Source: an uncultured Mesorhizobium sp.
Lineage (GTDB): Bacteria; Pseudomonadota; Alphaproteobacteria; Rhizobiales; Rhizobiaceae
Direction: 5' to 3'
DNA length: 64,000 bases
Assembly (NCBI GenBank): GCA_964629765.1
Contig: CAZVTK010000002.1
Location: 32,898 to 96,897, forward strand
Position 1 is the stretch's first letter. Each line of letters starts with the position of its first letter. Below are positions 20,346-55,536 of this stretch, in pieces. The position numbers and the translations under genes were made by a program. Below the pieces are notes generated by a model. It saw only the letters and a list, made by a program, of their open reading frames with translations. It ran no database searches and had not been told where the DNA came from.

Positions 20346-20620
20346 CTAGAGCCTGTTATGGACTATGGATGGGGCTGCGCTGCCGCCGATTTTGGCCCGC
20401 CCGGCAGGAGCCGGTCGCAGACCGGTATCGGGAATACCTGCAAGACCGGCGACGAACCGGTGGGCCAAAAGCGGCGCAGCCCGAAGGGTTGAGCGGCGAA
20501 GGCCGCCTGATGCGTCGAAAGGCTTGCCGGTATGCCCGATACCGGCCTGCGCCTTTCTCCTGTCATGCGGTCCTTCGTCGCTCAACGCAGCCTCCATCCA
20601 GGGTCCATAACAGGCTCTAG
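20346..20620. mobile_element. MITE-like non-autonomous element 1 (275 bp including both CTAG)
   Basis: Perfect 18-bp inverted ends CTAGAGCCTGTTATGGAC (20346-20363 / 20603-20620), extending imperfectly to about 35 bp. No credible ORF. The right CTAG coincides with the CoA-transferase stop codon. Confidence 0.82.
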
Positions 20621-21795
20621 CGCGACCGGCCGGCGAGCTTCGCCAGCACTTCCCCGGTGTGCTGGCCCAGCACCGGCGGCGCGGAGAAGGTTTCCGCGCT
20701 GCCGGTCTTGATCGGGTTGCCGACCATCTTCTGCACGGTCCCGTCGGCGTTCTCGACCTCGACGATCATGTTGCGGCGGGCCACCGTGGGGAAGGCGAAC
20801 GCCTCGTCGATGGTCTGGACCAGCGCGACGGGCACGCCCTCCTTCTGGAAGGCGGCGACCCAGTGGGCAGAATCCTTCGCCAGAAAGGCCTCGGCGACCA
20901 CCGCTTCCAGCTCCCTGGCGTGCTTGCGCCGCTCCGGAACGGTCTTGAAGCGGGGATCCTCCGCAAGGTCGGCCCGGCCGATCGCGTTCATGTAGCCGAC
21001 CCACCAGCGCGGCAGCACGCTGGGCGTCGCATAGACGTACCGGCCGTCGGCGCATTCGTAGGCGCGGCTGGGCGGCATGTTGGCGAGCCGCGTGCCGACG
21101 CGCGAATAGACGATGCCGTGGGTGAAATAGTCCTGCGCCTGCCAGATGAGCAGGCTGAGCTGCGCATCGAGGATCGACACCTCGACGAAGCGGCCCTTGC
21201 CGTCGCGCTGGCGTCCCTGAAGGCCGGCGAGGATCGCCACGGCCGCCCACAGGCCGCCGGCGGTATCGCCGATCTGGTAGCCCACGCGGGCAGGGGGGCC
21301 GTCGGGATCGCCGGTGATGCTCATCACGCCGGACACCGCCTGGACCAGCGAGTCCGTGGCCGGGAAGTTGCCGTACTCACCCTCGCTGTCGAAGCCGCAG
21401 ACCGAGCAGACCACCAGCCCGGGGTTCATGGCGTGCAGGGTGGCGAAGTCGAAGCCGAGCCGGTCGACAACGCCCGACTTGAAATTGTGGCAGAAGACGT
21501 CGGCCTCCTTGAGAAGCTGCATCAACGCTTCCTTGCCCGCGTCCTCCTTGAGGTCGAGCACGATGCCTTTCTTGTTGCGGTTCACGCTGTAGTAGAAGGT
21601 GCTGTTGCCCTCCGAGATGAAGGGCGGGATCAGCCGCGTCGGATCGCCCGACGGAGGCTCCACCTTGATCACTTCCGCGCCGAGGTCGCCGAGGATCATC
21701 GTGGCGAACGGGCCGGAGATGAAATGCGATATGTCCACGATCTTCAGTCCGCGCAGCGGCGGCTCGAGCTTTTCACCGGGGAAGGACGTCGTCAT
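20617..21795 (-). CDS. Class III CoA transferase (CaiB/BaiF)
   Basis: GPFATMILGDLGAEVIKVEPP.GD, NRNKK and the catalytic Asp in IGDTAGG. Start at 21795 or 21813. Confidence 0.93.
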   Translation of the reverse strand: MTTSFPGEKLEPPLRGLKIVDISHFISGPFATMILGDLGAEVIKVEPPSGDPTRLIPPFISEGNSTFYYSVNRNKKGIVLDLKEDAGKEALMQLLKEADVFCHNFKSGVVDRLGFDFATLHAMNPGLVVCSVCGFDSEGEYGNFPATDSLVQAVSGVMSITGDPDGPPARVGYQIGDTAGGLWAAVAILAGLQGRQRDGKGRFVEVSILDAQLSLLIWQAQDYFTHGIVYSRVGTRLANMPPSRAYECADGRYVYATPSVLPRWWVGYMNAIGRADLAEDPRFKTVPERRKHARELEAVVAEAFLAKDSAHWVAAFQKEGVPVALVQTIDEAFAFPTVARRNMIVEVENADGTVQKMVGNPIKTGSAETFSAPPVLGQHTGEVLAKLAGRSR

Positions 21796-21809
21796 CGGGT
21801 GTCCACTTC

Positions 21810-22520
21810 TCATTTCTTCTGTCGGGCGTCGGGATCGCCGATGCGGCGGTTGCCCGTGAGCCGATCGGAGGCCCAGCGCACCTGAGCGGCGATCTCGCCG
21901 GGGGCGCGGGGCAAGGTGTCGAGCACGCCCTGCTTGACGAGTTGCAGGCAGGCCGGGTCGTGCCCGGCTATCCGCGCCGCCCAGCCCCGGGCGAACGGCA
22001 GCACCTCGGCCGGGGGCAGCACGCGGTTGAGGAAGCCGGCGCGGTGGAGCTCCGCCGCCGACACCTCGTCGGCGAGCAGCAGGTATTCCATCGCCAGCTT
22101 GTGGGGCACGCGCGCGGCGAGCGCCGAGGCGACGCCTTTCGAGAATCCGATCCTGACCTCCGGATAGCAGAAGCGGGCGTCCTCCGCGGCCACCGCGAGG
22201 TCGACCTGCTGGAGCAGGATCATTCCGCCGGCGACGCACCAGCCTTCGACGGCGGCGATGATGGGCTTGGCGGTGCGCACGCCCAGATTGGGCGCCCAGC
22301 GGGAGCCGCTCTGCGGCGGATCCTTCAGGTCGACGCCGGAGCTGAAATTGCCGCCGGCGCCGCTGAGCACGGCAACGACGTCGTCGCCCTCCTCGAAGCG
22401 CCTCCATGCGGCTTCCAGATCGGCGGCCATCTGCTCGTTGATGGCATTCTTCCTCTCGGGACGGTTGAGCGTGATCGAAGCCACCCCGTCCTTCGAGGCA
22501 TACAGCACGGTGCCGGTCAT
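21810..22520 (-). CDS. Enoyl-CoA hydratase/isomerase family protein
   Basis: LNRPERKNAI, FSSGVDL, KPIIAAVEG and YPE (single catalytic Glu). Confidence 0.9.
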   Translation of the reverse strand: MTGTVLYASKDGVASITLNRPERKNAINEQMAADLEAAWRRFEEGDDVVAVLSGAGGNFSSGVDLKDPPQSGSRWAPNLGVRTAKPIIAAVEGWCVAGGMILLQQVDLAVAAEDARFCYPEVRIGFSKGVASALAARVPHKLAMEYLLLADEVSAAELHRAGFLNRVLPPAEVLPFARGWAARIAGHDPACLQLVKQGVLDTLPRAPGEIAAQVRWASDRLTGNRRIGDPDARQKK

Positions 22521-22621
22521 CTTCCTCCCCTGTCCGAGCCTGCGAAGCATGGACATCCTACACGGCTCCCCGGTCCGTGTCGGACGCCCTCGATTGCCGC
22601 TCGTTGTTGTCTATGCATATG

Positions 22622-22637
22622 TTCCGTATACTGTCAA
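22622..22637 (-). promoter_or_regulatory. Putative MarR operator TTCCGTATACTGTC overlapping a minus-strand TTGACA
   Basis: Palindrome variant. tgtcaa at 22632-22637 reads TTGACA on the minus strand, upstream of the ECH operon. Confidence 0.65.
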
Positions 22638-22673
22638 TCTGGCGCGCGGCCTGCCGGCCCGAACCGCCGCCGG

Positions 22674-23900
22674 CTATGCGGATGCCCTCCTCGGCACCGC
22701 TTCCGCCGCCGGCATCTCGATGCCCGACAGCCCGGAGCCGCCGTAGAGCCAAGCCAGGATATCGTACCATTCGGCGGCGGACTTGGCCTGCATGATCTCG
22801 TTGCGCAGCGCCGCATGCACGCCGGACGGATGGTAGATGTGGTCGCCGATCGCCCTCGACTGGAGCTGGACGCGCGCCGTGCGCAACGTCCTCGCCGTCT
22901 GATAGCGCAGCATCGCGGTTTCGACGTCGTCCGAATGCTGGAGCAGATGCGTCAGCGCGACCGCGTCCTCCATGGCCATGCAGGCGCCCTGCGCGAAATA
23001 CTGCATCATGGGATGGGCCGCGTCCCCCAGCAGCGCCACGCGGCCGTCGACCCATCTGGCGATCGGTTCCCGGTCGCACAGGACCCATTTGCGCCAGTTC
23101 GATCCGTGCTGGATGATCGACCGGGCCGTCGCGCAGGTGTCGCGAAAGCCCTCATGCACCTCGTCGTGATGCACCGGAGCACCGGCCACGGGCTCCGGCG
23201 CGTGGTTATGGTAGGTCACCACCAGATTGAACGAGCTCCAGTCCGACAACGGATAGTGCACGATATGGCATTTGGGGCCGGCCCACAGCGTCGCCGCGTT
23301 CCAGCGCAGATCTTCCGGCATGTCCTCGACGGCGATGACGGAGCGGTAGGTGGTGTGGCCGGAAACCCGCGGCGGCCCGTCTGCGGCGAGCTGGCTCCTG
23401 ACGTTCGACCAGAGGCCGTCGGCGCCGACCAGCGCGCTTCCGCGCAACCGCTCGCCATCGGCCAGGGTCGCCGTCACCGACGCGCCGTCCTGGTCGTAGC
23501 GCGCCACTTCCGCGCTGGTCCGGATATCGACGAGGCTCGATTCGCGGCAGCGGCGCAGCAGGATGGAGTGGAGCTCGCCGCGATGCACGACCGCATAGGG
23601 ATTGCCGAACCGCTGGCGGAACGCATCCTCCAGCGGAATGCGGATGATCTCGTCGCCGCTCAACGCGTCCATCAGGCGCAGGCTGTCGATGAAGATGGCG
23701 TGCCGCTTCGCCTCCTGCGCGATGCCGAGAAAGTCGAAGGAGTGGAATGCGTTAGGGCCGAGCTGGATGCCCGCGCCGATCTCGCCGAGCGTGGGCGCCC
23801 TTTCCAGCACGAGCACGCGCATGCCGCGCTCCGCCAGCCCGAGCGCCAGCGACAGGCCGCCGATTCCGGCTCCGGCGATCAAAATTGGCAAGGACGTCAT
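22674..23900 (-). CDS. 3-hydroxybenzoate 6-monooxygenase-like FAD monooxygenase
   Basis: GAGIGG, EIGAGIQLGPN, GADG, LGDAAHPMMQYFAQGACMAMEDA; adjacent to gentisate genes. Confidence 0.88.
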   Translation of the reverse strand: MTSLPILIAGAGIGGLSLALGLAERGMRVLVLERAPTLGEIGAGIQLGPNAFHSFDFLGIAQEAKRHAIFIDSLRLMDALSGDEIIRIPLEDAFRQRFGNPYAVVHRGELHSILLRRCRESSLVDIRTSAEVARYDQDGASVTATLADGERLRGSALVGADGLWSNVRSQLAADGPPRVSGHTTYRSVIAVEDMPEDLRWNAATLWAGPKCHIVHYPLSDWSSFNLVVTYHNHAPEPVAGAPVHHDEVHEGFRDTCATARSIIQHGSNWRKWVLCDREPIARWVDGRVALLGDAAHPMMQYFAQGACMAMEDAVALTHLLQHSDDVETAMLRYQTARTLRTARVQLQSRAIGDHIYHPSGVHAALRNEIMQAKSAAEWYDILAWLYGGSGLSGIEMPAAEAVPRRASA

Positions 23901-23950
23901 CAGCTTCTCCAATCGCGACGCCCGGCGCCGCAATCCTGCGTATTCATTAA

Positions 23951-23964
23951 ATCAGTATGCTGTG
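23951..23964. promoter_or_regulatory. Putative MarR operator ATCAGTATGCTGTG
   Basis: In an AT-rich intergenic patch upstream of the hydroxylase. Confidence 0.65.
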
Positions 23965-24004
23965 TTGTTGGCATCGATCATGGCGCATCCCTTCAGAACC
24001 GGCC

Positions 24005-25699
24005 TCAATCCCGCCCCGCTGCCGCCGCGTGCATCGCGACCCGGTAAGCGAACACCAATGCCGGCCCGAGCGTCGTGCCCGGCCCCGGATAGGTCCCCTC
24101 CATGACCGAACCCATGTCGTTGCCGCAGGCGTAAAGTCCCCCGAGCGGGCGCCCGCCGCCGTCGAGAACCCTTCCGTCCTCGTCGGTTCTCAGGCCGGCG
24201 CTGACGGCGATATCGGCTGCCCAGAGCGGCATGGCGACGTAGGCCCCGCCCTCGACGGGACCGAGGCAGGGGTTCGGCAGGTGATCCGGATCGCCGTTGA
24301 AGCGGTCGAGCTCGGCTTCTCCGCGGCCGAAGCTTTCGTCCCGGCCCGCTGCGGCGTTCGCGTTGAAGCGCTCCACGGTGGCTCGAAGCACGGCCGGATC
24401 GACGCCGATCTTCCGCGCAAGCTGCGGCAGGTCGGGCGCGGCGAAGACATATCCGCCGCGCTCGAAATCCGCCAGCGAGCGCGTGCCCGGATAGATCGCG
24501 CCGAGTCCGTATTTGCGAACGAACCGCATCGTGGCGACGAGATGCACCGGCCGCGCCGGGTCGTCGGCGTTCGCCCGCAGCATGCCCTCCACGAAGTCGT
24601 GATAAGAGGCGGCCTCGTTGGTGAAGCGGCGCCCGCTGCGGTCGACGGCGATCACCCCCGGCTTGGCGCGGTCGAGATAGAGATGCGGAAAAAGCCCTCT
24701 CCATCCGCGCCGGGCCGGGGTACGGGACACAGGCGTCCACAGGCCCGCGCCGCGGTGGTCGGCGGGATCGAGAACCCCGCCCGCCTCGAGCGCGGCCGCG
24801 ATTCCGTCGCCGGTGTCCGACGGGGCCGCCATCGAAAACGGAGCGACCCGCGGCATCACCTGCCTGCGCAACCCTTCATTGTGCGCCACGCCGCCCGTGG
24901 CCAGCACGACGCCGCGCCGGGCGCGCAGCGTTCGCGTGCCGCCCGGGGTGCGGACGACGGCGCCCGCCACGGCGCCGTTCTCGACCAGCAGCCGCTCCAG
25001 AGGCGTCTCGAAGCGGAAGCCCACGCCGAGCTTGCGGGCGCTGGAGAAGAGCCGCGCCACCAGCGCATTGCCCATCACCAGCCTGGTGCCGCGGCTGAAG
25101 CGCAGGCGGTCGACGAAGAACCGGCCGGCCAGCCGGACGGCATGAAGGAAATCGCCGGGCGACCGGTAGCGGCGCAGCAGGCGGGCTATGTCCACCTTTC
25201 CCACCATCATGCCGCCGAACAGCATGAACTCGCCGATCGGCGGCCGCACGCGCTCGAAGTCGCGGCCCAGTCGCCGGCCGTCGAACGGCGCCGGCGCGAT
25301 GGCGCGGCCGTAGACCGCCGAGCCGGGCATGGTGTTGCGGTAGTCGGGATGTTTGCCGGCCGCGACGAAGCGCAGGTCGGTGTGGGCTTCAAGGTAGTCG
25401 ATGACGCGCGGGCCGTCGTCCAGATAGGCTTTGCGGCGGGCGTCGCCGGAATGGCCGGTCAGCGCGTCGAGATAGGTGGCGGCGGCCTGCGCGCTGTCCT
25501 CGTAGCCTGCGGCCCTGCTCTGGCTGTTGCCGGGTATCCAGAGCGTGCCCGCCGACGTGGACGTCGTGCCGCCCACCTGCGCCGTCTTCTCGCAGACCGC
25601 GACCGACAGGCCGTTCAGGCGCGCGACGATGGCCGCGGTCATTCCGGCCGCTCCCGCCCCGATGACCACCAGATCGACCTCGTCGCGCCGTTCGTCCAT
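24005..25699 (-). CDS. FAD_binding_2 oxidoreductase (3-ketosteroid delta1-dehydrogenase-like)
   Basis: GAGAAG, GGTTSTSAG.LWIP, HPDY, LATGG, GLYACGN, YPGPGTTLGP. Confidence 0.85.
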   Translation of the reverse strand: MDERRDEVDLVVIGAGAAGMTAAIVARLNGLSVAVCEKTAQVGGTTSTSAGTLWIPGNSQSRAAGYEDSAQAAATYLDALTGHSGDARRKAYLDDGPRVIDYLEAHTDLRFVAAGKHPDYRNTMPGSAVYGRAIAPAPFDGRRLGRDFERVRPPIGEFMLFGGMMVGKVDIARLLRRYRSPGDFLHAVRLAGRFFVDRLRFSRGTRLVMGNALVARLFSSARKLGVGFRFETPLERLLVENGAVAGAVVRTPGGTRTLRARRGVVLATGGVAHNEGLRRQVMPRVAPFSMAAPSDTGDGIAAALEAGGVLDPADHRGAGLWTPVSRTPARRGWRGLFPHLYLDRAKPGVIAVDRSGRRFTNEAASYHDFVEGMLRANADDPARPVHLVATMRFVRKYGLGAIYPGTRSLADFERGGYVFAAPDLPQLARKIGVDPAVLRATVERFNANAAAGRDESFGRGEAELDRFNGDPDHLPNPCLGPVEGGAYVAMPLWAADIAVSAGLRTDEDGRVLDGGGRPLGGLYACGNDMGSVMEGTYPGPGTTLGPALVFAYRVAMHAAAAGRD

Positions 25700-25715
25700 G
25701 TCCCGCCTCCGCCGG

Positions 25716-26363
25716 TCATTCCACATCCGGCTGCGCTTCGGGCGCAGCGGACCGGAAGGCTTCCAGTTCGAGGCATCGTGCCTCGATCTCCAGCAGGCGG
25801 GGAAGGGCTTGCAGGTCGCAGCCGAAGCGGCGCGCGCTGTAGAGCTGCGGGATCAGGTATATTTCCGCCATGCCCGGGCGGTCGCCGAAGGCATAGCCCC
25901 CGGCGCGGGGCCCGAGCAGCGCCTCGCAGGCCGCCAGGCCCCGGCCGATCCAGTGCCTCGCCCAGCGGTCGACCGCGGGCTGCTCCTGCGCAAGCTCGGT
26001 GCGCAGATAGGACAGCACGCGCAGGTTGGCGAGCGGATGGATGTCGGCGGCCATGACCTGCGCGAAAGCGCGGCAGCGCGCGCGCTCGAACGGGTCCTGC
26101 GGCAGCAGGCGCGGCTCGGGACGGCTTTCCTCCAGCCACTCGATGATCGCCGAGGACTGCGTGAGCACCGCCCCGCCGACGGCGAGGCTGGGCACCAGCA
26201 TCTGCGGGTTGATCGCGGCGTAGGCGGGTTGCAGATGCTCGCCGCCATTGCGCCGCAGATGGACGTACCGCGTCTGCGGCGCAACGCCCTTCAGGGCGAA
26301 CGCTATGCGGCAGCGATAGGCGGCCGAGCTGCGGAAATAGCCGTAGAAGACCAGCTCATCCAT
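25716..26363 (-). CDS. nagL: Maleylpyruvate/maleylacetoacetate isomerase (GST zeta)
   Basis: YFRSSAAYRCRIA, NPQMLVP, QSSAIIEWL, DIHPLANLRVL. Confidence 0.92.
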   Translation of the reverse strand: MDELVFYGYFRSSAAYRCRIAFALKGVAPQTRYVHLRRNGGEHLQPAYAAINPQMLVPSLAVGGAVLTQSSAIIEWLEESRPEPRLLPQDPFERARCRAFAQVMAADIHPLANLRVLSYLRTELAQEQPAVDRWARHWIGRGLAACEALLGPRAGGYAFGDRPGMAEIYLIPQLYSARRFGCDLQALPRLLEIEARCLELEAFRSAAPEAQPDVE

Positions 26364-27072
26364 GGCCCGCCGTCCCTTCCGGCGCGGCGATGACGAGCTC
26401 GACCGGCGGGCAGCCGTGGATCGAGCCGTCGATCCTGTCGCCGGGCTCGACCGGCCCGACGCCGGCCGGGGTCCCGGTGAAGATCAGGTCGCCGGCCTCC
26501 AGATGGTAGAGCGTGGAAAGATGGGCGATCAGCTCCGGCACGCTCCAGACGAGATCGCTGAGGCGCGCCGACTGCTTCCGCGCGCCGTTGACGCGCAGCG
26601 ATATGGCCTGCCCGCCCACGGCGCCGAACCGCTCGGCAGGCACGATCCCGGCAAGCACCGCCGATTGCTCGAACGCCTTGCCGACGTCCCACGGCCGCTG
26701 CCTGGCGCGGGCTTCGAGCTGCAGGTCGCGCCGGGTCATGTCCAGCCCGCAGGCATAGCCGTAGACGGCGTCCAGCGCCCTGGCCGCCGGCACGCGGAAC
26801 GCCGGCCCGCCGAGCGCCACGACCAGCTCCATCTCGTAGTGATAGTTGGACGTCGCCGGCGGATAGGGAATCGTCGAGCCGGACGGCACGTAGGCCGACG
26901 CCGGCTTGGTGAAGTAGAACGGCGCCTCGCGGTCGACGGCCACGCCCATCTCGGCCGCGTGCTCGGCATAGTTGCGCCCGACGCAGAAGATGCGGCGTAT
27001 TGGATAGCGCACCTGGCTGCCCGCGATGGACGCGAGCACCGGCGGCGGCGGCTCGAACAGACAGGACGACAT
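26356..27072 (-). CDS. nagK: Fumarylpyruvate hydrolase (FAH family)
   Basis: RRIFCVGRNYAEHA.EMG, PFYFTKP, YHYEMELV, DMTRRDLQ, GDLIFTGTPAGVG. Confidence 0.9.
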   Translation of the reverse strand: MSSCLFEPPPPVLASIAGSQVRYPIRRIFCVGRNYAEHAAEMGVAVDREAPFYFTKPASAYVPSGSTIPYPPATSNYHYEMELVVALGGPAFRVPAARALDAVYGYACGLDMTRRDLQLEARARQRPWDVGKAFEQSAVLAGIVPAERFGAVGGQAISLRVNGARKQSARLSDLVWSVPELIAHLSTLYHLEAGDLIFTGTPAGVGPVEPGDRIDGSIHGCPPVELVIAAPEGTAGHG

Positions 27073-27077
27073 GGCGG

Positions 27078-28121
27078 TCAGTCTCTCGCCCGCTCTTCGT
27101 AGAAGCCGAGCTTCTGCTGCAACGGCGTGTCGTGGACGCGGATGAGATGGGCGTCCCCGCCCGTCGCGCGATGGTCGATCCTGGCGAACACCGGCGCGGA
27201 GAAGGTGTCGCCGCGCCGCCATGCGATCTCCGTGCCGTCGACATGGCTCACGCCTTCGCCGTCGACGACATGGAACACGCCGCTGGTCGACTTCAGCGGC
27301 GGTTCGTAGACGTCGCCCGCGCGCAGCAGCATGGCGGTGAAGCCCATCGTCGGAAGGCAGGGCTCGCCCGTCTCCGGGTTGACGTAGTCGAGCTCGATGG
27401 GTTCGTTGGCGTCCGCGAAGGTCTTCAGGCGGGCGAGCGCTGCTGCCGTCTTCTCCCAGGGATAGCGAAGCTGCGGATATTTCGTCCGCAGGGCGCCGGC
27501 GCTGCGCGGCGGCAGCAGCCCCGCCTCGGAAAACTCCAGCATGGACGCATCGGGCCGGTTGCGCGGCGTCTGGAATTCGCCCTCGATGGCATAGGAGCCC
27601 TCGAGGTAGACGAACAGCGGCAGGTCCAGCGCGTCCAGCCAGATGACCGGCTCGCTGCCCTCGTGGCCGTGGTCGTGCCACATGCCGCCCGGCGTGAGCA
27701 CGAGGTCGCCGTGCTTCATGACGCATTTCTCGCCGTCGACGATGGTGAAGGCGCCTTCGCCCTCGACGATGATGCGCGCCGCGCTCGGGGTGTGCTTGTG
27801 AGCGGGGGCCTTCTCGCCGGGCAGCAGAAGTTGCAGGCCGCAATAGATGGCGGAGCTGACCTGCATGGCGCCGGCGCCGCGGCCGGGATCCGAGAGCACC
27901 AGCACGCGGCGCTCGGCCTTTTCGACAGGTGTCAGCTCGCCCGCCTTCAGCAGCAGCGGACGGATGTCCCGGTATCTCCAGATGCCGGGCTTCGTCGCCG
28001 GCGCCGGGCGCCCGTGCGGCAGCACGTTGCGCATCATCGGCCACAGAGGCGCGGTGGACTGCGCGCTCAGCGCCTGCCGGTAGTCCAGCGGGAGATCTTC
28101 CATCGTGCCGAGATTTGCCAT
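27078..28121 (-). CDS. nagI: Gentisate 1,2-dioxygenase (NagI-type bicupin)
   Basis: LLLKAGELTPVEKAERRVLVL, HKHTPSA, TPGGMWHDHGH, WLDALDLP; nagI-K-L gene order. Confidence 0.9.
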   Translation of the reverse strand: MANLGTMEDLPLDYRQALSAQSTAPLWPMMRNVLPHGRPAPATKPGIWRYRDIRPLLLKAGELTPVEKAERRVLVLSDPGRGAGAMQVSSAIYCGLQLLLPGEKAPAHKHTPSAARIIVEGEGAFTIVDGEKCVMKHGDLVLTPGGMWHDHGHEGSEPVIWLDALDLPLFVYLEGSYAIEGEFQTPRNRPDASMLEFSEAGLLPPRSAGALRTKYPQLRYPWEKTAAALARLKTFADANEPIELDYVNPETGEPCLPTMGFTAMLLRAGDVYEPPLKSTSGVFHVVDGEGVSHVDGTEIAWRRGDTFSAPVFARIDHRATGGDAHLIRVHDTPLQQKLGFYEERARD

Positions 28122-28154
28122 GTGATTCTCCGTTCCTCAGTTCGTCCCCGCCCG

Positions 28155-45923: not shown

Positions 45924-47570
<1,647 letters not shown>

Positions 47571-47588
47571 TCCCTCAAGTCTCTCGAT

Positions 47589-47662: not shown

Positions 47663-47672
47663 AAAGTGCCGC

Positions 47673-48716: not shown

Positions 48717-48815
48717 CCGTGCCTCCTCGCAACCTCTCCGCCTCGAAACGCGACGCATCCGGCAAGGCATGCGCGATCGAGGCCGGGCGACCATGCGCCC
48801 GTCCAATCTTTGTGT

Positions 48816-48960
48816 CAATGGATGAACCATTGTATTTGGCGCGATGTCTGAAATGCCGCATGCCGGATCGAATCGCTGCGGGGGAACCCGGTCGCTCAAG
48901 CTGCGCAGATGGTGGTCATCTTGACCACCACCTCCAATTTTCATATGGTTCAACCATTGA
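48816..48960. promoter_or_regulatory. Divergent promoter with FadR-type sites CAATGGATGAACCATTG (48816-48832) and ATGGTTCAACCATTGA (48945-48960), plus inverted repeat GGTGGTCA-tct-TGACCACC (48911-48929)
   Basis: Read directly; each site overlaps a TTGACA hexamer. Confidence 0.7.
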
Positions 48961-48988
48961 CACTCATGGAAATGGCTGGGAGGAAAAC

Positions 48989-50068
48989 ATGCTGAAACGT
49001 CTCGGCGCGCTGTGCGCCACCGCCTTCATGGCGGCCACCATCGCCGCCGGCCCCGCCGCGGCACAGGACATGCCGGCGCCCGGCGACGAAGCCGCCCTCT
49101 ACGAGCGCGCCAAGGCCGAGGGTTCGCTGGTCTGGTATACCGGCGGCGCGCTCGACACCTCGCAGGCCATCGCGGCCTCCTTCGAGAAGGCCTATCCGGG
49201 CGTCAAGGTCGAGGTCCTGCGCCTTGCCGGCGCCGCGCAGTACCAGCGCTTCATGGAAGAGACCGGTGCCGGCCAGAACATCGCCGACATCCTGTGGATC
49301 GGCGACTACCCGTCCATGCAGGCCCTGGTCGCGGACGAGCTCGTCGCCGAGTGGCGCATCCCGACCGCGGACCGCTTCGACGAGCGCTACCGCATGGGCG
49401 GCCGCGCCTACGCGTTCAACCGCGTCGACTCGGTCATCGTCTACAATGACAGGCTGGTGAGCGAGGAAGAGGCGCGCCTGCTCGAGGCGGACTGGCGCAA
49501 CATTCTCGATCCGCGCTTCAAGGGCCGCTTCGCCACCACCACCGCCAAATGCGGCGCCTGCTACGTGGCGATCAACCTGTTCACCGACCCGGCCCTGTCC
49601 TCCGTCTATCCCGAGGACTTCCTTGAAAAGGTCGGCGCGCAGGGACCGGCGGTCTACAACGACTTCATCGCCATGGTGGACCGCATCGTCGCCGGCGAGA
49701 ACGACTTCGCCTACTGGAGCTTCGAGTCCATCGCGGCCACCAAGCGCGCCCAGGGCGCGCCGGTGAAGTGGGTCTACCCGAAGCCGACGCCGTCCTTCCC
49801 GAGCACCTGGATGGCCGTCTCCGGCAAGGCGCCGCATCCCGCCGCCGCGCGCCTGTTCATCAACTGGGTGGGCAGCGAGGCCGGCGCCAGGTCGATCATG
49901 CTCGACTATTTCGGCACGCCGACCATGAGCGGCATCGCCGACGAGCGCGCCTTCGCTTCCGAGGACTGGTATCGCGGCCCGGCAGAGCTCTACAACGTCG
50001 ACTTCAACCGCTGGATCGAGCGCTACGACGCCGACATGGCGCGCTGGATCGCCGCGATCAGCCGTTAG
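48989..50068 (+). CDS. ABC transporter substrate-binding protein (FbpA/PotD-like), Sec signal
   Basis: MLKRLG..AAA signal, AEGSLVWYT, DPRFKGRFA. SD GGGAGG. Confidence 0.88.
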   Translation: MLKRLGALCATAFMAATIAAGPAAAQDMPAPGDEAALYERAKAEGSLVWYTGGALDTSQAIAASFEKAYPGVKVEVLRLAGAAQYQRFMEETGAGQNIADILWIGDYPSMQALVADELVAEWRIPTADRFDERYRMGGRAYAFNRVDSVIVYNDRLVSEEEARLLEADWRNILDPRFKGRFATTTAKCGACYVAINLFTDPALSSVYPEDFLEKVGAQGPAVYNDFIAMVDRIVAGENDFAYWSFESIAATKRAQGAPVKWVYPKPTPSFPSTWMAVSGKAPHPAAARLFINWVGSEAGARSIMLDYFGTPTMSGIADERAFASEDWYRGPAELYNVDFNRWIERYDADMARWIAAISR

Positions 50069-50093
50069 CGGCCGTGGTTTCTTCCGCAAGCTG

Positions 50094-50130
50094 GACGCCG
50101 GCCGGCCGATCCGCCGGCCGGCGTCGTTTC
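50094..50130 (+). terminator. 13-bp GC stem-loop (GACGCCGGCCGGC/GCCGGCCGGCGTC) after the SBP gene; weak terminator or stabiliser
   Basis: Perfect stem, 6-nt loop, short T tail. Confidence 0.5.
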
Positions 50131-50177
50131 CTGCCTTTGCCCGGCGCGCAATGCAGCAAGCCGGCGGCGGATCGACC

Positions 50178-51392
50178 ATGATGCCGGACATCCGCATCGG
50201 CGACGAGGAGCGCTCCCGCAGGAGGATGCGCGTGCTCGCCGATATCCACAACCTGAACGACATGCGAGAAGCCGCCCGCCGGCGGTTGCCGAAGGGAATC
50301 TTCGAGTTCATCGACCGAGGCGCCGAGGACGAGATTGCGATCTCGAACAACCGGCGCGCCATCGACGACCTGAAATTCTCTCCGAAAGTGCCGCGCGACG
50401 TGTCGGGACGCACTGCCGATACGGTTCTGTTCGGGAAGCGCCACGGCATGCCGGCCGCGATCGCGCCGACCGGCGCTGCCGGGCTGGTGCGCTACCAGGG
50501 CGAGTTGGAGCTGGCCCGCGCCGCCGCACAGGCGAACATACCCTTCACGCTTGCGACCCGTTCGACGATATCACTGGAGGAGGTCGCCGCCCGCGCAGGC
50601 GGCACGCTGTGGTTCCAGCTCTATGTATGGGCTGACAGGAGCCTGTCCCACGGCATTGTGGAGCGGGCGGCGAAGGCCGGATACGAGGCGCTGGTCGTCA
50701 CCGTCGACACGCCTGCGCCGCCCAACCGCGAATACAACCACCGCAACGGCTTTTCCCTTCCGTTCGTGCCTTCCGGCCGCGCGGTACTCGACATGGCACG
50801 CCATCCGAAATGGCTTTTCGGCGTGATGGGAAGATATCTCCTGACCACCGGCATGCCCCGCTACGAAAACCAGCCCGGCGAGCACAACCAGAAGATGACG
50901 CGCGGCGCCGAGACGCTGGCGTCGCGCATCAGCGATTCCGTCACCTGGGAGGATATCGCGACGTTGCGCCGGCTCTGGCCGCGCACGCTCATCCTCAAGG
51001 GCATCCTGCGTGCGGACGATGCGAGGAAGGCGGTGGAACACGGCGTCGACGGAGTCGTGGTGTCCAACCATGGAGGCCGCTGCCTGGATGCCGCCGTCGC
51101 ACCCCTCGATGCATTGCCGGGCATCGCCGACGCCGTCGCCGGACGGGCAACCATCCTGGTCGACGGCGGCTTTCGCCGCGGCAGCGACATAGCGAAGGCG
51201 ATATGCCTGGGCGCATCTGCCGTGCTGCTGGGCCGGACGACGCTGTTCGGCACGGCCGTGGCGGGCGAAAAGGGGGCACACCACGCGCTGGCGATCCTGC
51301 GACGCGAGCTTCTGACGGTGATGGCGATGACAGGCGCTTCGGCGCTGTCCGACCTTGAGCCCGATCTCCTGGTCGGCGGAAGCAGGACATGA
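50178..51392 (+). CDS. FMN-dependent alpha-hydroxy acid dehydrogenase (lactate/mandelate/glycolate oxidase family)
   Basis: F.FIDRGAEDE, WFQLY, TVD, NRE, LKGI, SNHGGR, DGGFRRGSDIAKA. Start uncertain. Confidence 0.92.
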   Translation: MMPDIRIGDEERSRRRMRVLADIHNLNDMREAARRRLPKGIFEFIDRGAEDEIAISNNRRAIDDLKFSPKVPRDVSGRTADTVLFGKRHGMPAAIAPTGAAGLVRYQGELELARAAAQANIPFTLATRSTISLEEVAARAGGTLWFQLYVWADRSLSHGIVERAAKAGYEALVVTVDTPAPPNREYNHRNGFSLPFVPSGRAVLDMARHPKWLFGVMGRYLLTTGMPRYENQPGEHNQKMTRGAETLASRISDSVTWEDIATLRRLWPRTLILKGILRADDARKAVEHGVDGVVVSNHGGRCLDAAVAPLDALPGIADAVAGRATILVDGGFRRGSDIAKAICLGASAVLLGRTTLFGTAVAGEKGAHHALAILRRELLTVMAMTGASALSDLEPDLLVGGSRT

Positions 51393-51506
51393 AGGCTGGA
51401 CCTGAAGGGCGCGAGCGCCGTCTCCCGATATTTGTTCCCTCGCCGCTTCGAAACAGGAGCGACGCCGGGAATGCGTCGATCCCTAACGGCAGGAGCCGAA
51501 GACATC

Positions 51507-51935
51507 GTGACGCTTGACTGGACGACGGCGCGGGCCGTCATCGAAACCTACCTGCATGGCGTCGACGCCAAAGACGAGGCCGAGCTGCTCGGCGTGTTCG
51601 CCGAGGACGCCGAGGCGCTCTACCATCGCGGCTCGGCCGACGAGCGCCGCACGCTGGGCCGCGACGGGATCGTCGGCGAGATCGTGCGCAGCATCGCGCG
51701 CTTCACCGCATCGAACCACAGCATCTCCAATTTCACCGTGAAGCTCAACGGCGACGCCGCGCGCACGGACACTTTCGCCATCGCCAACGTCGTCTTCGGC
51801 ACGCGCATGCTGGTGCGCGGGCTGCGCTATCAGGACCTGATCGTGCGCACGCCCGCCGGGCCGGTCATCCGCGAGCGCGTCCACACGCCGCTCTGGCAGA
51901 CCGAGCTGGCCACCGTGCCGCCGAAGATGGGCTGA
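51507..51935 (+). CDS. NTF2/SnoaL-like domain protein
   Basis: Y.HGVDAKD..L.VFAEDA, SNH.ISN, GLRYQD. GTG start after AGGAG. Confidence 0.8.
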   Translation: MTLDWTTARAVIETYLHGVDAKDEAELLGVFAEDAEALYHRGSADERRTLGRDGIVGEIVRSIARFTASNHSISNFTVKLNGDAARTDTFAIANVVFGTRMLVRGLRYQDLIVRTPAGPVIRERVHTPLWQTELATVPPKMG

Positions 51936-51958
51936 GCCTCGCGGGCGGCGCCGGCGTT

Positions 51959-53077
51959 TCAGGCGTCGCGCTGCGCCTGCGCCGCGAAGGCGTAGGCGGC
52001 TTCGATGATCTCCAGATGGCGCACCCCCGCCTCGATGTCGATCTCGCCCGACCGTCCGGCGTCGAGCGCGTCGAGGAACGCCGATATGTCGGCATCCGGC
52101 GATTCCCGCTCCAGCGGCACCGGCGCGTTGCCGCGCGGCGGGATCGCGGCGATGGTGGAGGCCCACATCGACATCGGGTCGTGCTCGTATCCGGCCGGAT
52201 GCGCGAACGGCACCGTCGGCGCGTGCACCACGAGCCGGTCGCGCAGCGGCCCGAAGCGCGCCACGCCGCCGCTGCCGTGCAGCGTCACGCCCATGAAGCC
52301 GCGCCAGGGGTGCCGGTCCCAGCCGATGCGGCCGGCATTCATCGTGGCGATCACGCCGCCCTCGAATTCCACCACGAGCGCGCCGAAATCCTCCGCGTTC
52401 TGGTCGAGATGCTCGCGGAAGAAATGGTTGCCCGTGAATGCCGCCACCGAGCGCACGGGCCGGCCGACCAGCCAGCAGGCAAGCGAGACGGGATAGTAGC
52501 CCATGTCGAACAGCTCGCGCTTGGCCGATTCGGCGGGAAAGCGCGGCAGCGCCGTCACCTCCCTGCGGATGCCGGACGGCAGCTCCGCCGGCATGCCCTT
52601 GGACACCAGCATCTCGCCATGCAGGGCGAGCAGCGTGCCCAGCCGGCCGGACTCCAGCGCCCGCCTGGCCTCGCGCGCCCACGGCGTGGTCGCATGGCTG
52701 AGGATCTGCGTTTGCACGCCGCCGGCGCGCACCGCGGCGGCGATGCGCCGGGCGTCGGCGGCGGAAGCGGCCGCCGGCTTGTCGAGATAGAGATGCAGGC
52801 CGCGCCCCGCGCAGCGGGCGGCGACCTCGCCGCGGTCTTCCATCGGCACGCACACGCAGGCGATGTCGGCTCCCCGGTCGAGGGCCGCGTCGAGCGTGAG
52901 GAAATCGATGCCGAGCCGGGCCGCCATAGCGGCGCCGGCCGCCCGCCGCGGCTCCGGTATGCCGGGAAGGTCGGCCAGCGCCACGACCTCGCAGCGCGGC
53001 TCCGCCATGAAATGCGGCGCGTAGTGCTCCTGGTGCGTGCGGTCCCCGCCGGCGAGCAGTACCCGGTAGCGCGCCAT
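51959..53077 (-). CDS. Gfo/Idh/MocA family oxidoreductase
   Basis: HLYLDKPAA, ELFDMGYYP, AEDFGA..F.GG.IAT. Confidence 0.85.
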   Translation of the reverse strand: MARYRVLLAGGDRTHQEHYAPHFMAEPRCEVVALADLPGIPEPRRAAGAAMAARLGIDFLTLDAALDRGADIACVCVPMEDRGEVAARCAGRGLHLYLDKPAAASAADARRIAAAVRAGGVQTQILSHATTPWAREARRALESGRLGTLLALHGEMLVSKGMPAELPSGIRREVTALPRFPAESAKRELFDMGYYPVSLACWLVGRPVRSVAAFTGNHFFREHLDQNAEDFGALVVEFEGGVIATMNAGRIGWDRHPWRGFMGVTLHGSGGVARFGPLRDRLVVHAPTVPFAHPAGYEHDPMSMWASTIAAIPPRGNAPVPLERESPDADISAFLDALDAGRSGEIDIEAGVRHLEIIEAAYAFAAQAQRDA

Positions 53078-53079
53078 GG

Positions 53080-53454
53080 TCAGGGCTCGTGCCGCCAGGT
53101 CAGCGATCCGCCGCTGCCGAGCACGAGCAGGTCGCAGCGGCTTTCCGGCGCGACGACCACCGACAGCAGGGCGATCTGCCCGCCGGACCAGAGCGCGAGC
53201 ACGGCGGCGGCGGATGCTCCGCCCACCGGGTGCAGGCTCCTGCGCTCGCCGCCGAAGCACCGGCCGATCGCAGCCAGCGCGCCGTCGCGCGCGGCGGCCG
53301 CGCCCGCCTCCGACGTCACCGCGAGCAGCAGCCGGGCGGAGCGCGGCGTGCCGATGCGCCCGCCGGCAACGGCCCGGTCGACGGCGTCCCAGAGCCTGGC
53401 AAGCAGGGCCGGCAGCTCGAGGGTCGGGTCGGGGGTCGGGTCGGGCGCGCCCAT
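53080..53454 (-). CDS. Hypothetical protein (124 aa)
   Basis: Fills the gap between the permease and the Gfo/Idh/MocA gene with 2-7 bp spacing; no recognised domain. Confidence 0.5.
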   Translation of the reverse strand: MGAPDPTPDPTLELPALLARLWDAVDRAVAGGRIGTPRSARLLLAVTSEAGAAAARDGALAAIGRCFGGERRSLHPVGGASAAAVLALWSGGQIALLSVVVAPESRCDLLVLGSGGSLTWRHEP

Positions 53455-53461
53455 GGCCGCC

Positions 53462-55240
53462 CTATTTCGACGCCGCGACGGCTTCGAGCCGCACCTTGAA
53501 CAGCGCCCGTGTCACCAGCACCAGGCCGATCATCATCGCCGTCTGCACGACGCCGACCGCCGAGGCGAACTGGTACTCGCCGCCGTCCATGTAGTGCCAG
53601 GTCAGCACCGAGAGCGTCAGGCTCTTCTGGCTGTAGAGCAGCGCGGAGGCGGACAGCTCCTTGATCGACTGCAACATGACGAAGAACAGCAGCGCGATCA
53701 GCGTCGGCTGGACCAGCGGCATGACGATGGCGCGGATCGCCCTCAGCCGCGAGGCCCCGGACATGCGCGCGCTCTGCTCCAGCTCGGGATGGACCTGCAT
53801 GATCGCCGATCGGCTGACGAGGATGCCGTAGGGCAGCGACTTGGCGACCATCGCCAGGAGCAGGATCCAGATCGTGCCGTAGAGCGGCGTGCGCAGATAG
53901 AGCCACAGCAGGCCGATGCCGTAGACGAGGCCCGGCACCGCCACCGGCAGCACGCCGAGCATGGCGACCGTCTTCGAGAAGAAGGTCGGCTGGCGCACCT
54001 CGAGGAAGCTGATCAGGAAGCCGAACACCACGCAGGCGGCGCCGGTCAGTATCGCGGCCAGCGCGGTGTTCCACAAGGCGGTCCGCGTGTCGGGCAGGTT
54101 GAGGATCTTGTCGTAGTGGACGAGCGTGAGGATGTCCCACGAGATCGTCGTCGACGAGTACTTCATGAACGACGACAGGATGATCGAGCCGAGCGGCAGG
54201 ATGTCGGCCGCGAGCACGTAGACCGTGATCACCGCCAGCGCCGGCCATTTGAGCGCGCCCAGCGGCAGCGGCTTGCCCTTGAACCCCTTGCCGGCCATCG
54301 TCACGTAGCGCTCGCTGCGCCTGGTGATGACGCGCTGGATCAGCATGCCGGCGATGGCGATCCACAGGATCATGGTGCCCGCGGCGGCCGCGTGGGCACG
54401 GTGCACCGGGAACTGGGTCGAGTCCTTGTAGATCTGCCAGGGCAGCGTGGTGAAGCCGGCATTGGCGCCGATGATGCCGGGTATGGTGTAGACCTCGGCG
54501 GCGAGGATGAAGACCAGCAGGCCGGCCGAGAAGATCGACGGCATGGCCATCGGCACGGTGATGAGGCTCAGCGTCTTCAGCGGGCCGGCGCCGGACATGC
54601 GGGACGCCTCCTCCAGCGAGGAATCCATGGTCCGCATCGAGCCGACCGTGAACAGGTAGACGAACGGGCAGAAGAACAGGAACATCACCCACACGACGCC
54701 GCCGAAGCTCCAGATGTTGAAGAGAGGCGACGCGTCGATGCCGAACAGGCTCCAGAACTGCATCCAGGCGATGTTGATCAGCCCCGTCTTCTCCGAGCCC
54801 AGCGCGATCCACGCGATGAGGCCGGTGAAGGGCGACACGAACATCGGCATGATGATCAGCAGCTCGATCAGGCCTTTGTTCTTCATGTCGGTGCGTGCCA
54901 TGATCAGCGCCATGACGACGCCGAAGACCAGCGACAGCGCGGTGACGAGCGCCGAAAGCAGCAGGGCGTTCATCAGATAGCCCAGATATTGCGCCGTCCC
55001 GTACACGTTGATCACGGCTTCGAGGCTGCGCACCGCGCTGAGGCCGACACGCGTCTCCTTGTAGAAGGACGCGTCCACGGCCAGCACCAGCGGGACGATG
55101 GAAACCAGGATGACCGCGGCGGCGATCGCCAGCCACAGCAGGTTTTCCGGCGTCAGGTAGGTCCTGAAGATGTCGGTCCGGCGCGGCGCGATCACGGTGC
55201 CGGCAGTGCGGGGCATCGTATTGACGGACTGCATGGCCAT
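53462..55240 (-). CDS. ABC transporter permease with two TM domains (FbpB-like)
   Basis: Two EAA loops (SLEEASRMSGA, ELEQSARMSGA). ATG 55240 after SD GGGAG. Confidence 0.92.
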   Translation of the reverse strand: MAMQSVNTMPRTAGTVIAPRRTDIFRTYLTPENLLWLAIAAAVILVSIVPLVLAVDASFYKETRVGLSAVRSLEAVINVYGTAQYLGYLMNALLLSALVTALSLVFGVVMALIMARTDMKNKGLIELLIIMPMFVSPFTGLIAWIALGSEKTGLINIAWMQFWSLFGIDASPLFNIWSFGGVVWVMFLFFCPFVYLFTVGSMRTMDSSLEEASRMSGAGPLKTLSLITVPMAMPSIFSAGLLVFILAAEVYTIPGIIGANAGFTTLPWQIYKDSTQFPVHRAHAAAAGTMILWIAIAGMLIQRVITRRSERYVTMAGKGFKGKPLPLGALKWPALAVITVYVLAADILPLGSIILSSFMKYSSTTISWDILTLVHYDKILNLPDTRTALWNTALAAILTGAACVVFGFLISFLEVRQPTFFSKTVAMLGVLPVAVPGLVYGIGLLWLYLRTPLYGTIWILLLAMVAKSLPYGILVSRSAIMQVHPELEQSARMSGASRLRAIRAIVMPLVQPTLIALLFFVMLQSIKELSASALLYSQKSLTLSVLTWHYMDGGEYQFASAVGVVQTAMMIGLVLVTRALFKVRLEAVAASK

Positions 55241-55263
55241 CGATGGTCTCCCTTGCCTGTGGG

Positions 55264-55536
55264 CTAGGTCGTGTACTGATAATGGGTTTGGCCGCGGCGC
55301 GAGCCGGATTTGGGCCCTGAGCAGGCGAAAAGACCGCCGTGGTGTCGACCACCACAAGGGCTTTTCAACGAACTCAGGCCGCAAATCCGCCGCGCCCCGA
55401 AGGGGTATGGCCAAAATCGGTGATTTCGTCGTCGCGGACCCTCGACGGGGAACCACCCCGCCTTCGGCTCCGCTCCTCGAACTGACCGATTTTGACCCAT
55501 ACCGCGGCTCGAACCCATTATCAGTACACGACCTAG
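55264..55536. mobile_element. MITE-like non-autonomous element 2 (273 bp including both CTAG)
   Basis: Perfect 25-bp inverted ends CTAGGTCGTGTACTGATAATGGGTT (55264-55288 / 55512-55536); lies between the ABC ATPase and permease genes. Confidence 0.85.

Follow-up and report, generated by a model that had tools for sequence, protein, structure and literature searches.

The closest described counterparts of the elements reported here are MITEs mobilised by insertion sequences (ISs) of the IS427 group, such as the IS1248 and ISPpa2-type elements of Alphaproteobacteria. ISs of this group measure 832-865 bp, have 2-bp direct repeats and carry two frameshifted ORFs (PMC3281130). Within the window, the whole 64,000-nucleotide stretch of DNA that was analysed, lie two elements, E1 (20346-20620) and E2 (55264-55536; both coordinates re-read in the window sequence), which resemble such MITEs in belonging to a multi-copy alphaproteobacterial family, in their 2-bp TA duplication and in termini of 18-25 bp that are identical or near-identical to IS ends. 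Unlike those MITEs, the E1/E2 family has one conserved scaffold that bears many terminus classes: those beginning GGACCAATCGACA, GGCCGTGTGGAC and GRGCCTGT each occur on both E1-type and E2-type scaffolds. Beyond ~25 nt the interior is unlike that of the partner ISs, so the elements are not simple deletion derivatives. We consider it very probable that E1 and E2 are two diverged ~267-bp members of one non-autonomous MITE superfamily with IS427-type termini, which would move in trans.

Other small repeats share some of these traits. Correia elements (CREE/NEMIS) of Neisseria are likewise small, TA-duplicating inverted-repeat elements, numerous close to genes, and a further likeness is their co-transcription, with a long terminal hairpin in the RNA. 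However, they belong to another lineage, measure 100-155 bp, form a single hairpin and have no known partner transposase, whereas the E1/E2 family is 267 bp long, its fold is a four-way junction whose arms covary, and an IS family is identified for its termini. ERIC/IRU, RUP, BOX and REP/REPIN repeats are also intergenic, structured, multi-copy and often transcribed in operons, but REPINs are moved by RAYTs (IS200/IS605-like) and are without such terminal repeats and target duplication, and ERIC, RUP and BOX differ in size, host and fold; no ERIC, RUP, BOX or REP/REPIN repeat matched E1 or E2. The RIME1/RIME2 and Sm-repeats of rhizobia are likewise intergenic mosaic palindromic repeats of Hyphomicrobiales. 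RIMEs are ~100 nt long with two palindromes, and BLAST against 72,556 plasmids, Sinorhizobium megaplasmids included, gave no RIME-type match for E1 or E2. Stowaway/Tc1-mariner- and IS630-type MITEs share TA duplication, terminal inverted repeats and mobilisation in trans, as presumed for E1 and E2, but the termini of the E1/E2 family match IS5-family and not IS630/mariner elements. Rfam gave no family above threshold for E1 or E2, and nothing matched in Rfam or the searchable literature; this is apparently an undescribed, large family of tiny non-coding alphaproteobacterial transposons.

The original prediction bounded both elements by CTAG, and CTAG does stand at every border, but the real border is the duplicated TA and CTAG is only the favoured target. 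E1 proper runs from G20349 to C20617, between a left TA in a CTAG target (20347-20348) and a right TA (20618-20619) that with C20617 reads TAG on the minus strand; E2 proper runs from G55267 to C55533, between TA duplications at 55265-55266 and 55534-55535. Inverted-repeat searches, together with a shuffle test, place the terminal inverted repeats at 20349-20372 and 20594-20617 in E1 and at 55267-55288 and 55512-55533 in E2, with complementarity of 93% over 28 nt and 96% over 28 nt, respectively. Two terminus matches were found per element where shuffles predict none. The outer left repeat of E1 is IS427-like, its CTAGAGCCTGTTATGGACTA matching an IS of Hymenobacter canadensis, and that of E2 resembles Tepidamorphus copies beginning GGTCGTGGTGAGG. 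E1/E2-type elements have no coding capacity. The elements had been described as having the same fold and unrelated ends: the fold is indeed shared, but the ends are divergent members of one IS427-like continuum, TA-G(G/A)(G/A/T)(C/T)C. An HMM of E1-type copies from which E1 was left out matches E2 at 55381-55535 (E = 2.7e-10), and the two are remotely homologous, not unrelated. The observation as a whole stands in part, with corrections to the borders, the ends and one loop of E2.

Looking for ISs with matching ends, we found the outer 18-25 nt, E1's own end included, at the ends of ~855-bp IS5-family ISs of IS427 type, which encode a DUF4096 + DDE_Tnp_1 transposase, duplicate TA and agree with the characters of the IS427 group. 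The IS of Acetobacter pomorum pSH1 begins TA-GGGCCAATCGACATTCAGG, spans 856 bp to its second TA and has orfA and orfB, with DUF4096 and DDE_Tnp_1, in a frameshift layout. An IS on a Neorhizobium galegae plasmid has the end GGACCTATCGACATTCAGG and a transposase with the N-terminus MAARRYELSD, and the same genus also holds GGACCAATCGACATTCAGG MITEs. An IS5-family IS on a Hymenobacter canadensis plasmid, TA-GAGCCTGTTATGGACTA...TA with the same two domains, is identical to the E1 end at 20 of 20 positions. These end-matching ISs all come from other strains or taxa; the plasmid collection yielded no partner IS for the terminus of E2 or for most other terminus classes, and searches of the window, the surroundings of the copies and ~1 Mb of fetched loci revealed no IS427-type transposase. 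The suggestion of a structured MITE superfamily moved by an unlinked transposase is supported by the IS-type termini, the multiple copies, the conserved fold and the lack of an adjoining transposase, from which we infer movement in trans.

The family is multi-copy, dispersed and TA-duplicating, as anticipated, with more than 100 related copies recovered from Hyphomicrobiales, Glycocaulis and soil metagenomes. A genome scan gave 88 loci, mainly in Hyphomicrobiales and Glycocaulis (at least 16 in Roseibium marinum), and a metagenome scan by the left-arm motif gave 63 loci of the same architecture. Exact TA...TA borders delimit 52 copies of 269-273 bp, with ~267 bp between the TA duplications; TA stands at both ends of E1, E2 and 50 listed family copies. 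Identity between copies is 0.946-0.978 within a genome versus 0.67-0.78 between genomes. The E1 type is ~10-30x over-represented in the source metagenome: in run X1, depth is 120-457 inside E1 versus 13-15 in its flanks, and many distinct flanks begin exactly at 20346 and 20620, while depth at the ends of E2 is ~45-50 versus 14. No polymorphic empty allele of E1 or E2 was seen in the metagenome contigs; an element-free homologous operon occurs at the soxB-soxD junction of R. johnstonii, another genus.

E1 and E2 share a four-way junction composed of a terminal stem, a left arm, a CCC-NNN-GGG midpoint mini-hairpin and a right arm. Minimum free energies are -189.2 kcal/mol for E1 and -165.9 kcal/mol for E2 (z-scores -14.7 and -13.4); none of 200 shuffles reaches such stability. 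The E1 left arm (20373-20479; single-sequence fold and family consensus) has a base helix pairing 20372-83 with 20471-82, an internal loop CAGGAG / GACGAAC and an apical hairpin GGTAT-CGGGA-ATACC (20424-20438). Its right arm (20489-20593; inverted repeats, fold and the E1-type set) has a base helix pairing 20488-502 with 20572-86, the motifs GCGTCG and CTCCTG and an apical hairpin GCCGGTAT-GCCCG-ATACCGGC (20526-20546); a sequence check places GGTAT-GCCCG-ATACC at 20529-20543. Inverted repeats, fold and consensus define both arms of E2. The left (55289-55394) pairs 55290-99 with 55388-97 at its base and has an internal loop CAGGCG / AACGAAC and an apical hairpin GTGGTG-TCGAC-CACCAC (55339-55355); the right (55406-55511) pairs 55409-28 with 55478-97 and contains the motifs CGTCGTCG and GCTCCT and an apical hairpin GGGG-AACCA-CCCC (55447-55459; minimum free energy and family consensus). 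The predicted midpoint hairpin, CCCGAAGGG, lies at 20480-20488 and 55396-55404, at the midpoints of the elements, as CCC-GAA-GGG in E1 (sequence and fold) and within CCCC-GAA-GGGG at 55395-55405 in E2 (sequence, fold and consensus). The GATTTTGG/GGCCAAAA blocks reported from both elements are present in each, where they make up the opposite strands of the helices at the arm bases.

Across the family, arms and mini-hairpin show strong compensatory variation. The arms are ~90 nt each, and their stems change by compensating substitutions: in an arms-only alignment 45 of 58 pairs are compensatory, 94.9% of cells are paired, and the covariation score is 0.438 versus 0.167 in shuffles (0 of 500 reach it), a control that overstates significance because the aligned copies are kin. 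Sliding the pairing partners leaves an arms-only score of at most 0.119. The consensus fold has double changes in 67 of 85 pairs, and the mini-hairpin helix (142-145 with 149-152) shows UA<->CG and CG<->UA changes. In alignment A2 the search pattern itself accounts in part for the conserved centre, whose independent support comes only from the E1-type set and four BLAST hits. The mini-hairpin is kept in 40 E1-type copies whose retrieval did not rely on the centre, with its stem fixed and its triloop free. The unpaired motifs CAGGAG, GACG, CGTCG and CTCCTG are fixed in the family. Each strand of the element folds as well as the other, and the four-way fold beats every single long hairpin by 20-26 kcal/mol; the family has no conserved single long hairpin and no conserved arm-to-arm pairing (alifold -40.8 vs -101.7). 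Of the statement that structure is conserved while sequence diverges, the first half holds, through compensatory changes, but the divergence was overstated, E1 and E2 being homologous.

We propose that the genome encodes, at some other locus, an IS427-type DDE transposase that would bind both termini and move the element in trans. Copies would be transcribed within operon mRNAs in either orientation, where a compact self-contained fold may keep the insertion harmless; because the ends pair with each other, the element would not pair with flanking mRNA. Our preferred reading, to which we give roughly an even chance, is that this transcription within operons is what places the fold under selection. 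More tentatively, the fold or its symmetric motifs may aid assembly of transposase or host factors on such short DNA. Some of the covariation may have a mutational origin, as template-switch correction in quasi-palindromes pairs changes without structural selection.

Taken further, such correction during replication could by itself have kept the arms hairpin-like, the fold being a functionless legacy of an ancestral palindrome composed of two IS-end copies in opposite orientation. The element does resemble its reverse complement (E = 7e-13 for the match of the E1-type HMM to the E1 minus strand), with a 73-nt repeat at 73% complementarity between the E1 arms; G.U mismatches are as frequent as A.C mismatches (71 vs 63, at pairs common to both strands), the centre triloop switches between GAA and TTC among subfamilies, and AGGAG lies ~62 nt from the end, close to the position of the Shine-Dalgarno sequence of the transposase gene in the partner IS, and could be a relic. 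Yet left-right symmetry has decayed while within-arm pairing stays at 90-99% across bacterial orders, conservation is higher in unpaired motifs than in stems, as expected of a structure under constraint, and correction alone would not hold a three-hairpin topology at just 44-70% identity between copies. We regard a functionless fold as unlikely.

Copies are intergenic, often inside operons and in both orientations relative to genes, and favour convergent or co-directional gene ends over divergent promoters. E2 is flanked by two minus-strand genes, one for an ABC ATPase (55563-56657) and one for an ABC permease (53462-55240). One whole copy lies within 700-790-nt transcripts in metatranscriptome contigs, in which DNA carry-over is possible. 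Such locations and transcripts, with the stable fold and conserved unpaired motifs, would also suit REP/BIME- or RIME-like repeats that the host has domesticated to stabilise mRNA or bind proteins and that have lost their mobility. This we find very hard to credit: near-identical copies occupy many unrelated sites of single genomes, TA duplications are intact and IS-type termini perfect, copy sets differ among related genera, and the Sinorhizobium megaplasmids, in which RIMEs are abundant, gave no match.

The original prediction also offered a structured ncRNA, or part of one, whose apical loops kiss as a loop-loop pseudoknot; its MITE superfamily is retained, but the ncRNA is largely refuted for the family and highly improbable. 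The fold is very stable, and the E1 loops CGGGA and GCCCG are complementary as claimed, because the right arm approximates the reverse complement of the left; likewise, in many E1-type copies the left loop is rich in G and its counterpart on the right is rich in C (CGGGGA/TCCCCG, CGGGCA/TGCCCG). Only E1-type subfamilies, whose arms remain near mirror images, show such complementarity often. Both E2 loops were said to be TCGAC, which does occur at 55345-55349 and 55442-55446, but the second lies in a stem flank, the right apex being AACCA. Only 3 of 68 E2-type copies have apical complementarity of at least 4 nt (65 have at most 3 nt), L001, the nearest relative of E1, retains 2 nt (CGGGA vs GCCAG), and the abundant Roseibium family has CCGCC vs AACA. 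Loop complementarity in E1 is a remnant of mirror (dyad) symmetry, not a functional kissing interaction. Further against an ncRNA, both orientations are inserted, the strands fold alike, and TA duplications with IS-type termini show mobile DNA; promoter- or terminator-like signals are not conserved, E1 having none and E2 one weak match of each kind, neither shared with E1-type copies.

IS630 elements duplicate TA within CTAG, as the E1/E2 family does. MITEs of IS630/Tc1-mariner type are nonetheless a most doubtful explanation, since all end-matching ISs encode an IS5-family transposase, no IS630-type end matched, and their ~855-bp length, their TA duplication and, in the Acetobacter IS, the orfA/orfB frameshift layout are IS427-group traits (PMC3281130).

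The insertion target is YTAR, mostly CTAG, with CTA or TTA on the left flank and TAG (43 copies) or TAA (13 copies) on the right. The element begins with G after TA, so that a TAA or TAG stop codon whose TA serves as target is rebuilt as TAG at each of the two borders. Some 60% of copies adjoin the stop codon of a gene, and the right border TAG of E1 is that of a CoA-transferase III gene (20617-22407, minus strand).

Reading both stretches directly bore out the coordinates and motifs that the original prediction had assigned to the two elements. E1 spans 20346-20620 and E2 spans 55264-55536, each with CTAG at both ends; the midpoint CCCGAAGGG lies at 20480-20488 in E1 and at 55396-55404 in E2, and the 28-nt terminal inverted repeats show 93% complementarity in E1 and 96% in E2. 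These termini are found in the window solely at the element ends, and a profile search of the 64 kb with nhmmer returned E1 and E2 and no third copy. The elements are 267-269 bp in size, within the range of MITEs, which are non-coding and shorter than about 600 bp. Because the apical loops vary by 1-2 nt in length among copies, no copy keeps a conserved reading frame, and we rejected a conserved ORF, or a Shine-Dalgarno sequence with a start codon, within the element, as the loop indels disrupt every frame. Long mechanical ORFs do pass through E1 (18878-20620, plus strand) and E2 (53462-55591, minus strand); in this high-GC DNA, ORFs that cross the elements could mislead gene callers into extending genes over them.

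Related copies are numerous and dispersed. BLAST against plasmids found an E1-like copy of 79.5% identity in a plasmid of Terrirubrum (listed as Terrarubrum flagellatum), and E2-like copies in Terrirubrum, Rhizobium sp. SSA_523 and Roseibium aggregatum. A degenerate pattern built on the shared centre retrieved 88 genomic loci, nearly all from Hyphomicrobiales (Roseibium, Stappia, Brucella/Ochrobactrum, Neorhizobium, Rhizobium, Mesorhizobium, Borborobacter, Tianweitania and others) and Glycocaulis. The most loci per genome, at least 16, occur in Roseibium marinum, where the 13 that were aligned have a mean identity of 97.8%. A second pattern, made of E1 left-arm motifs only and so independent of centre and termini, yielded 63 soil-metagenome loci; a first metagenome pattern, taken from the inner terminus of E1, had no matches. 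Copies measure 269-273 bp with the TA at each side counted in, and every full copy carries terminal inverted repeats. TA stands on both sides of E1, E2 and the 50 copies listed, with C/T-TA at the left and TA-G/A at the right, giving a YTAR target. Mean identity is 94.6-97.8% within a genome and 67-78% between the families of different genera, and E1 and E2 share 44%. Two overlong copies, at loci L017 (340 bp) and L056 (296 bp), have intact termini and must therefore carry internal insertions.

We conclude that E1 and E2 are real, cleanly delimited copies of a widespread MITE superfamily, with TA duplicated in CTAG-like targets. The MITE reading of the original prediction stands: terminal repeats, TA duplication, dispersed similar copies and IS-type termini were all found, and the searches of genomes, plasmids and metagenomes show the elements to be multi-copy. 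Two odd, hairpin-rich intergenic segments thus become a defined repeat family, which should aid annotation of alphaproteobacterial genomes and metagenome assemblies, since contigs break at these elements.

The source metagenome carries further copies. In one metagenome run, X1, read depth is 120-457 in E1 versus 13-15 in its flanks, and many different sequences meet E1 exactly at 20346 and 20620. Depth at the E2 ends, about 45-50 versus 14, suggests a few copies of its type. The terminal ~50 nt of E1 (20346-20410 and 20552-20620) reach depths of 457 and 268 in X1, 2-4 times the interior value of about 120, and one X1 contig departs from E1 at 20384. The ends of E1 are therefore shared by other elements of the community, possibly an autonomous IS among them. 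A solo truncated left end of about 40 nt, of the GGGTCAAAACTCAATCAGG subfamily, sits between two sugar-nucleotide genes on pHM1 of Rhizobium sp. SSA_523 (locus L160, 1801-1840).

E1 directly follows a minus-strand CoA-transferase family III gene, whose TAG stop is made of the flanking TA and the last base of E1. E2 occupies the gap in a minus-strand operon between the genes for an ABC-transporter ATPase and a permease. Within the ATPase gene, depth in a second run, X2, jumps from 10 to 68 over 37 nt (55821-55857) that have loose ends at either side; this spike probably marks a conserved ABC motif common to many contigs. In the first set of copies, roughly 41 of 68 adjoin the stop codon of one or both neighbouring genes, TA and the first G of the element forming TAG. 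Both E1 and the Terrirubrum copy between soxB and soxD abut a stop codon in this way, and the empty site of the latter, as reconstructed, is a TAATG stop-start overlap. The original prediction had called for empty sites; the homologous soxB-soxD junction of Rhizobium lacks the element and has no 270-bp spacer, and the source metagenomes yielded no empty allele. With both copy sets combined, 33 copies lie between convergent gene ends, 11 between divergent gene starts, and 36 ('--') and 17 ('++') between co-directional genes. As these copies do not count as independent, the excess of '--' over '++' is no more than suggestive; it would predict better tolerance of one orientation.

We then compared the element ends with those of known transposons. 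In their outer part the MITE termini equal those of small insertion sequences of the IS5 family. GGGCCAATCGACATTCAGG forms the ends of an 856-bp, TA-flanked IS on Acetobacter pomorum pSH1 that encodes orfA (DUF4096) and orfB (DDE_Tnp_1), and the same terminus class begins IS copies or remnants on plasmids of Sinorhizobium, Rhizobium and Neorhizobium; MITEs with GGACCAATCGACATTCAGG occur in these same groups. The first 20 nt of E1, CTAGAGCCTGTTATGGACTA, are identical to the end of a TA-flanked IS of ~852 bp in Hymenobacter canadensis, whose single 268-aa ORF contains DUF4096 and DDE_Tnp_1. The IS427 group of the IS5 family comprises elements of 800-1000 bp with 2-bp direct repeats, whose DDE transposase is in many cases encoded by two frameshifted ORFs (PMC3281130, Table 2); the partner ISs share its size and 2-bp duplication, and the Acetobacter IS its two-ORF layout. 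Past about 25 nt, MITE and IS sequences are unrelated. Transposases with matching ends thus exist, and partner IS termini were found for two MITE terminus classes, that of E1 included; the class of E2 and four more have none in plasmids. The suggestion that an unlinked transposase moves the elements fits in so far as tblastn with two IS427-type transposases found none in the window or beside copies and matching ISs are known, but for E2 the plasmids offered no such partner.

REPs and REPINs are short palindromes moved by a RAYT, without terminal repeats or target duplication, and the IS-type terminal repeats and TA duplication seen here argue against membership. An IS630-type MITE, the first guess from the TA/CTAG ends, was rejected because it is IS5/IS427-type ISs that have the matching termini; as to IS630/Tc1-mariner termini, the annotated terminus matches are all to the IS5 family. 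On a plasmid of Rhizobium sp. N731 (locus L162, 1201-1240 and downstream), an IS427-type terminus adjoins an ORF resembling an IS630-family transposase, so that the two IS types are nested or adjacent there.

Terminus classes cross the two scaffold types, E1-type and E2-type. Those beginning GGACCAATCGACA, GGCCGTGTGGAC and G(A/G)GCCTGT are all present on either kind of interior. One terminus class can be found on more than one scaffold, and one scaffold with more than one kind of terminus. E1 and E2 themselves are remotely homologous rather than convergent structures, because a metagenomic HMM of the E1 type, built with E1 left out, matches the centre, right arm and right end of E2 (E = 2.7e-10). 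The superfamily is apparently undescribed as far as Rfam 15 and the literature go, and may be catalogued elsewhere. Rfam gave no match in the window at the gathering threshold; at E values up to 10, all hits fell far below the family cut-off, the best (45 bits against a cut-off of 268) being to generic plant miRNA-precursor hairpins. Keyword and terminus-sequence searches across 8.3 million papers and preprints found no description.

Folded as single strands, E1 and E2 take up one common form, with a left arm, a very small hairpin at the centre and a right arm set on a long terminal stem. Fold energies of -189.2 kcal/mol for E1 and -165.9 kcal/mol for E2 lie 14.7 and 13.4 SD below those of dinucleotide shuffles. 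The consensus structure of 68 aligned copies is a four-way junction in which, at 67 of 85 pairs, both partners have changed with pairing kept. As a terminal stem is a feature of any inverted-repeat transposon, a second covariation test omitted it and took the arms and mini-hairpin only. Here 94.9% of cells are paired and 45/58 pairs show compensatory changes; the covariation score is 0.438, against 0.167 for shuffles (0 of 500 reach the observed value) and at most 0.119 when partners are slid. Conservation of structure under sequence divergence, as originally proposed, is supported. All 40 E1-type copies collected by a search blind to the mini-hairpin contain it, with a fixed CCC/GGG stem and a free triloop (GAA, GCA, GGA, TTC, TTT, AAC, GCG and others). 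Among E1-type loci compared with E1 (L109, L112, L121, L124 and L158), some subfamilies have GAA as the triloop and others the complementary TTC, which looks as though the palindrome tip had inverted. Unpaired motifs are conserved as well, CAGGAG and GACG(A/C) in the left arm and their mirror images CGTCG and CTCCTG in the right. A pairing between the internal-loop motifs CAGGAG and CTCCTG was rejected, since copies with CAGGCG (E2 and others) retain CTCCT in the opposite arm with no compensating change.

A single long hairpin, or arm-to-arm pairing, was likewise rejected as the conserved structure: the four-way fold is better than the best single hairpin by a mean of 20-26 kcal/mol, and no left-arm to right-arm pairing is conserved. 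The two strands fold equally well (alifold energy -101.66 on each). An apparent bias of G.U over A.C pairs, 264:70, which might have told the strand of the fold, became a balanced 71:63 once only pairs predicted on both strands were counted, so that neither strand is singled out by the data.

The original prediction also offered, as an alternative, an ncRNA with kissing loops. The apical loops of E1, CGGGA and GCCCG, are indeed complementary, and E1-type subfamilies commonly pair a G-rich left loop with a C-rich right one (for example, CGGGGA/TCCCCG). The right-arm apex of E2 is AACCA, not the TCGAC that had been claimed; complementarity of at least 4 nt occurs in 3/68 E2-type copies (mean 1.93 versus 1.58 permuted), and the closest relative of E1, locus L001, lacks it. 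We therefore reject a loop-loop pseudoknot for the family, loop complementarity not being conserved across it. In E1-type copies the apices of the two arms are nearly reverse complements of each other, so their loop complementarity is a residue of the element's dyad symmetry; this symmetry shows too in the match of the E1 family profile to the reverse strand of E1.

For the upkeep of the fold, the null hypothesis is pure mutational maintenance of a quasi-palindrome. We favour a role in which the fold would give tolerance within transcripts, because this fits either orientation, and rank second a role in which it may act in transposition. A more specific reading, which we put forward tentatively and consider doubtful, is that selection acts on the ~220-bp scaffold as a structure-dependent 'chassis', which would have been re-equipped time and again with the termini of whatever IS427-type transposase was available, and that the four-way junction and fixed unpaired motifs (CAGGAG, GACG, CGTCG, CTCCTG) would be functional. 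At the DNA level, a cruciform or ssDNA in the transposition complex could juxtapose the two ends or bind a host factor; at the RNA level, the chassis could be a module of the operon mRNA that acts at stop codons on processing, stability or translational coupling. If so, a MITE lineage would have been kept by selection on nucleic-acid structure across several alphaproteobacterial orders, and, if termini are truly swapped, a non-autonomous element could outlast any one transposase lineage. The family offers an unusually clean case for why some bacterial MITEs keep an elaborate fold: its covarying stems across orders, fixed unpaired motifs, identified partner IS family and insertion at a stop codon that the element regenerates together make the question testable by standard genetic methods in hosts that can be cultured, among them Roseibium marinum, Neorhizobium lilium and Rhizobium alvei.

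The organism of the window is present in DNA metagenome runs only. In seawater metatranscriptome contigs, a Roseibium-type copy, 93% identical, lies inside transcripts of 700-790 nt, consistent with read-through within operons; DNA carry-over is possible. An A-tract and a T-tract flank the left-arm apex in E2-type and not in E1-type copies, and in E2 itself (55337-55357, minus strand) the apex together with the TCTTTTC after it scores weakly, on the strand that is transcribed, as an intrinsic-terminator-like site.
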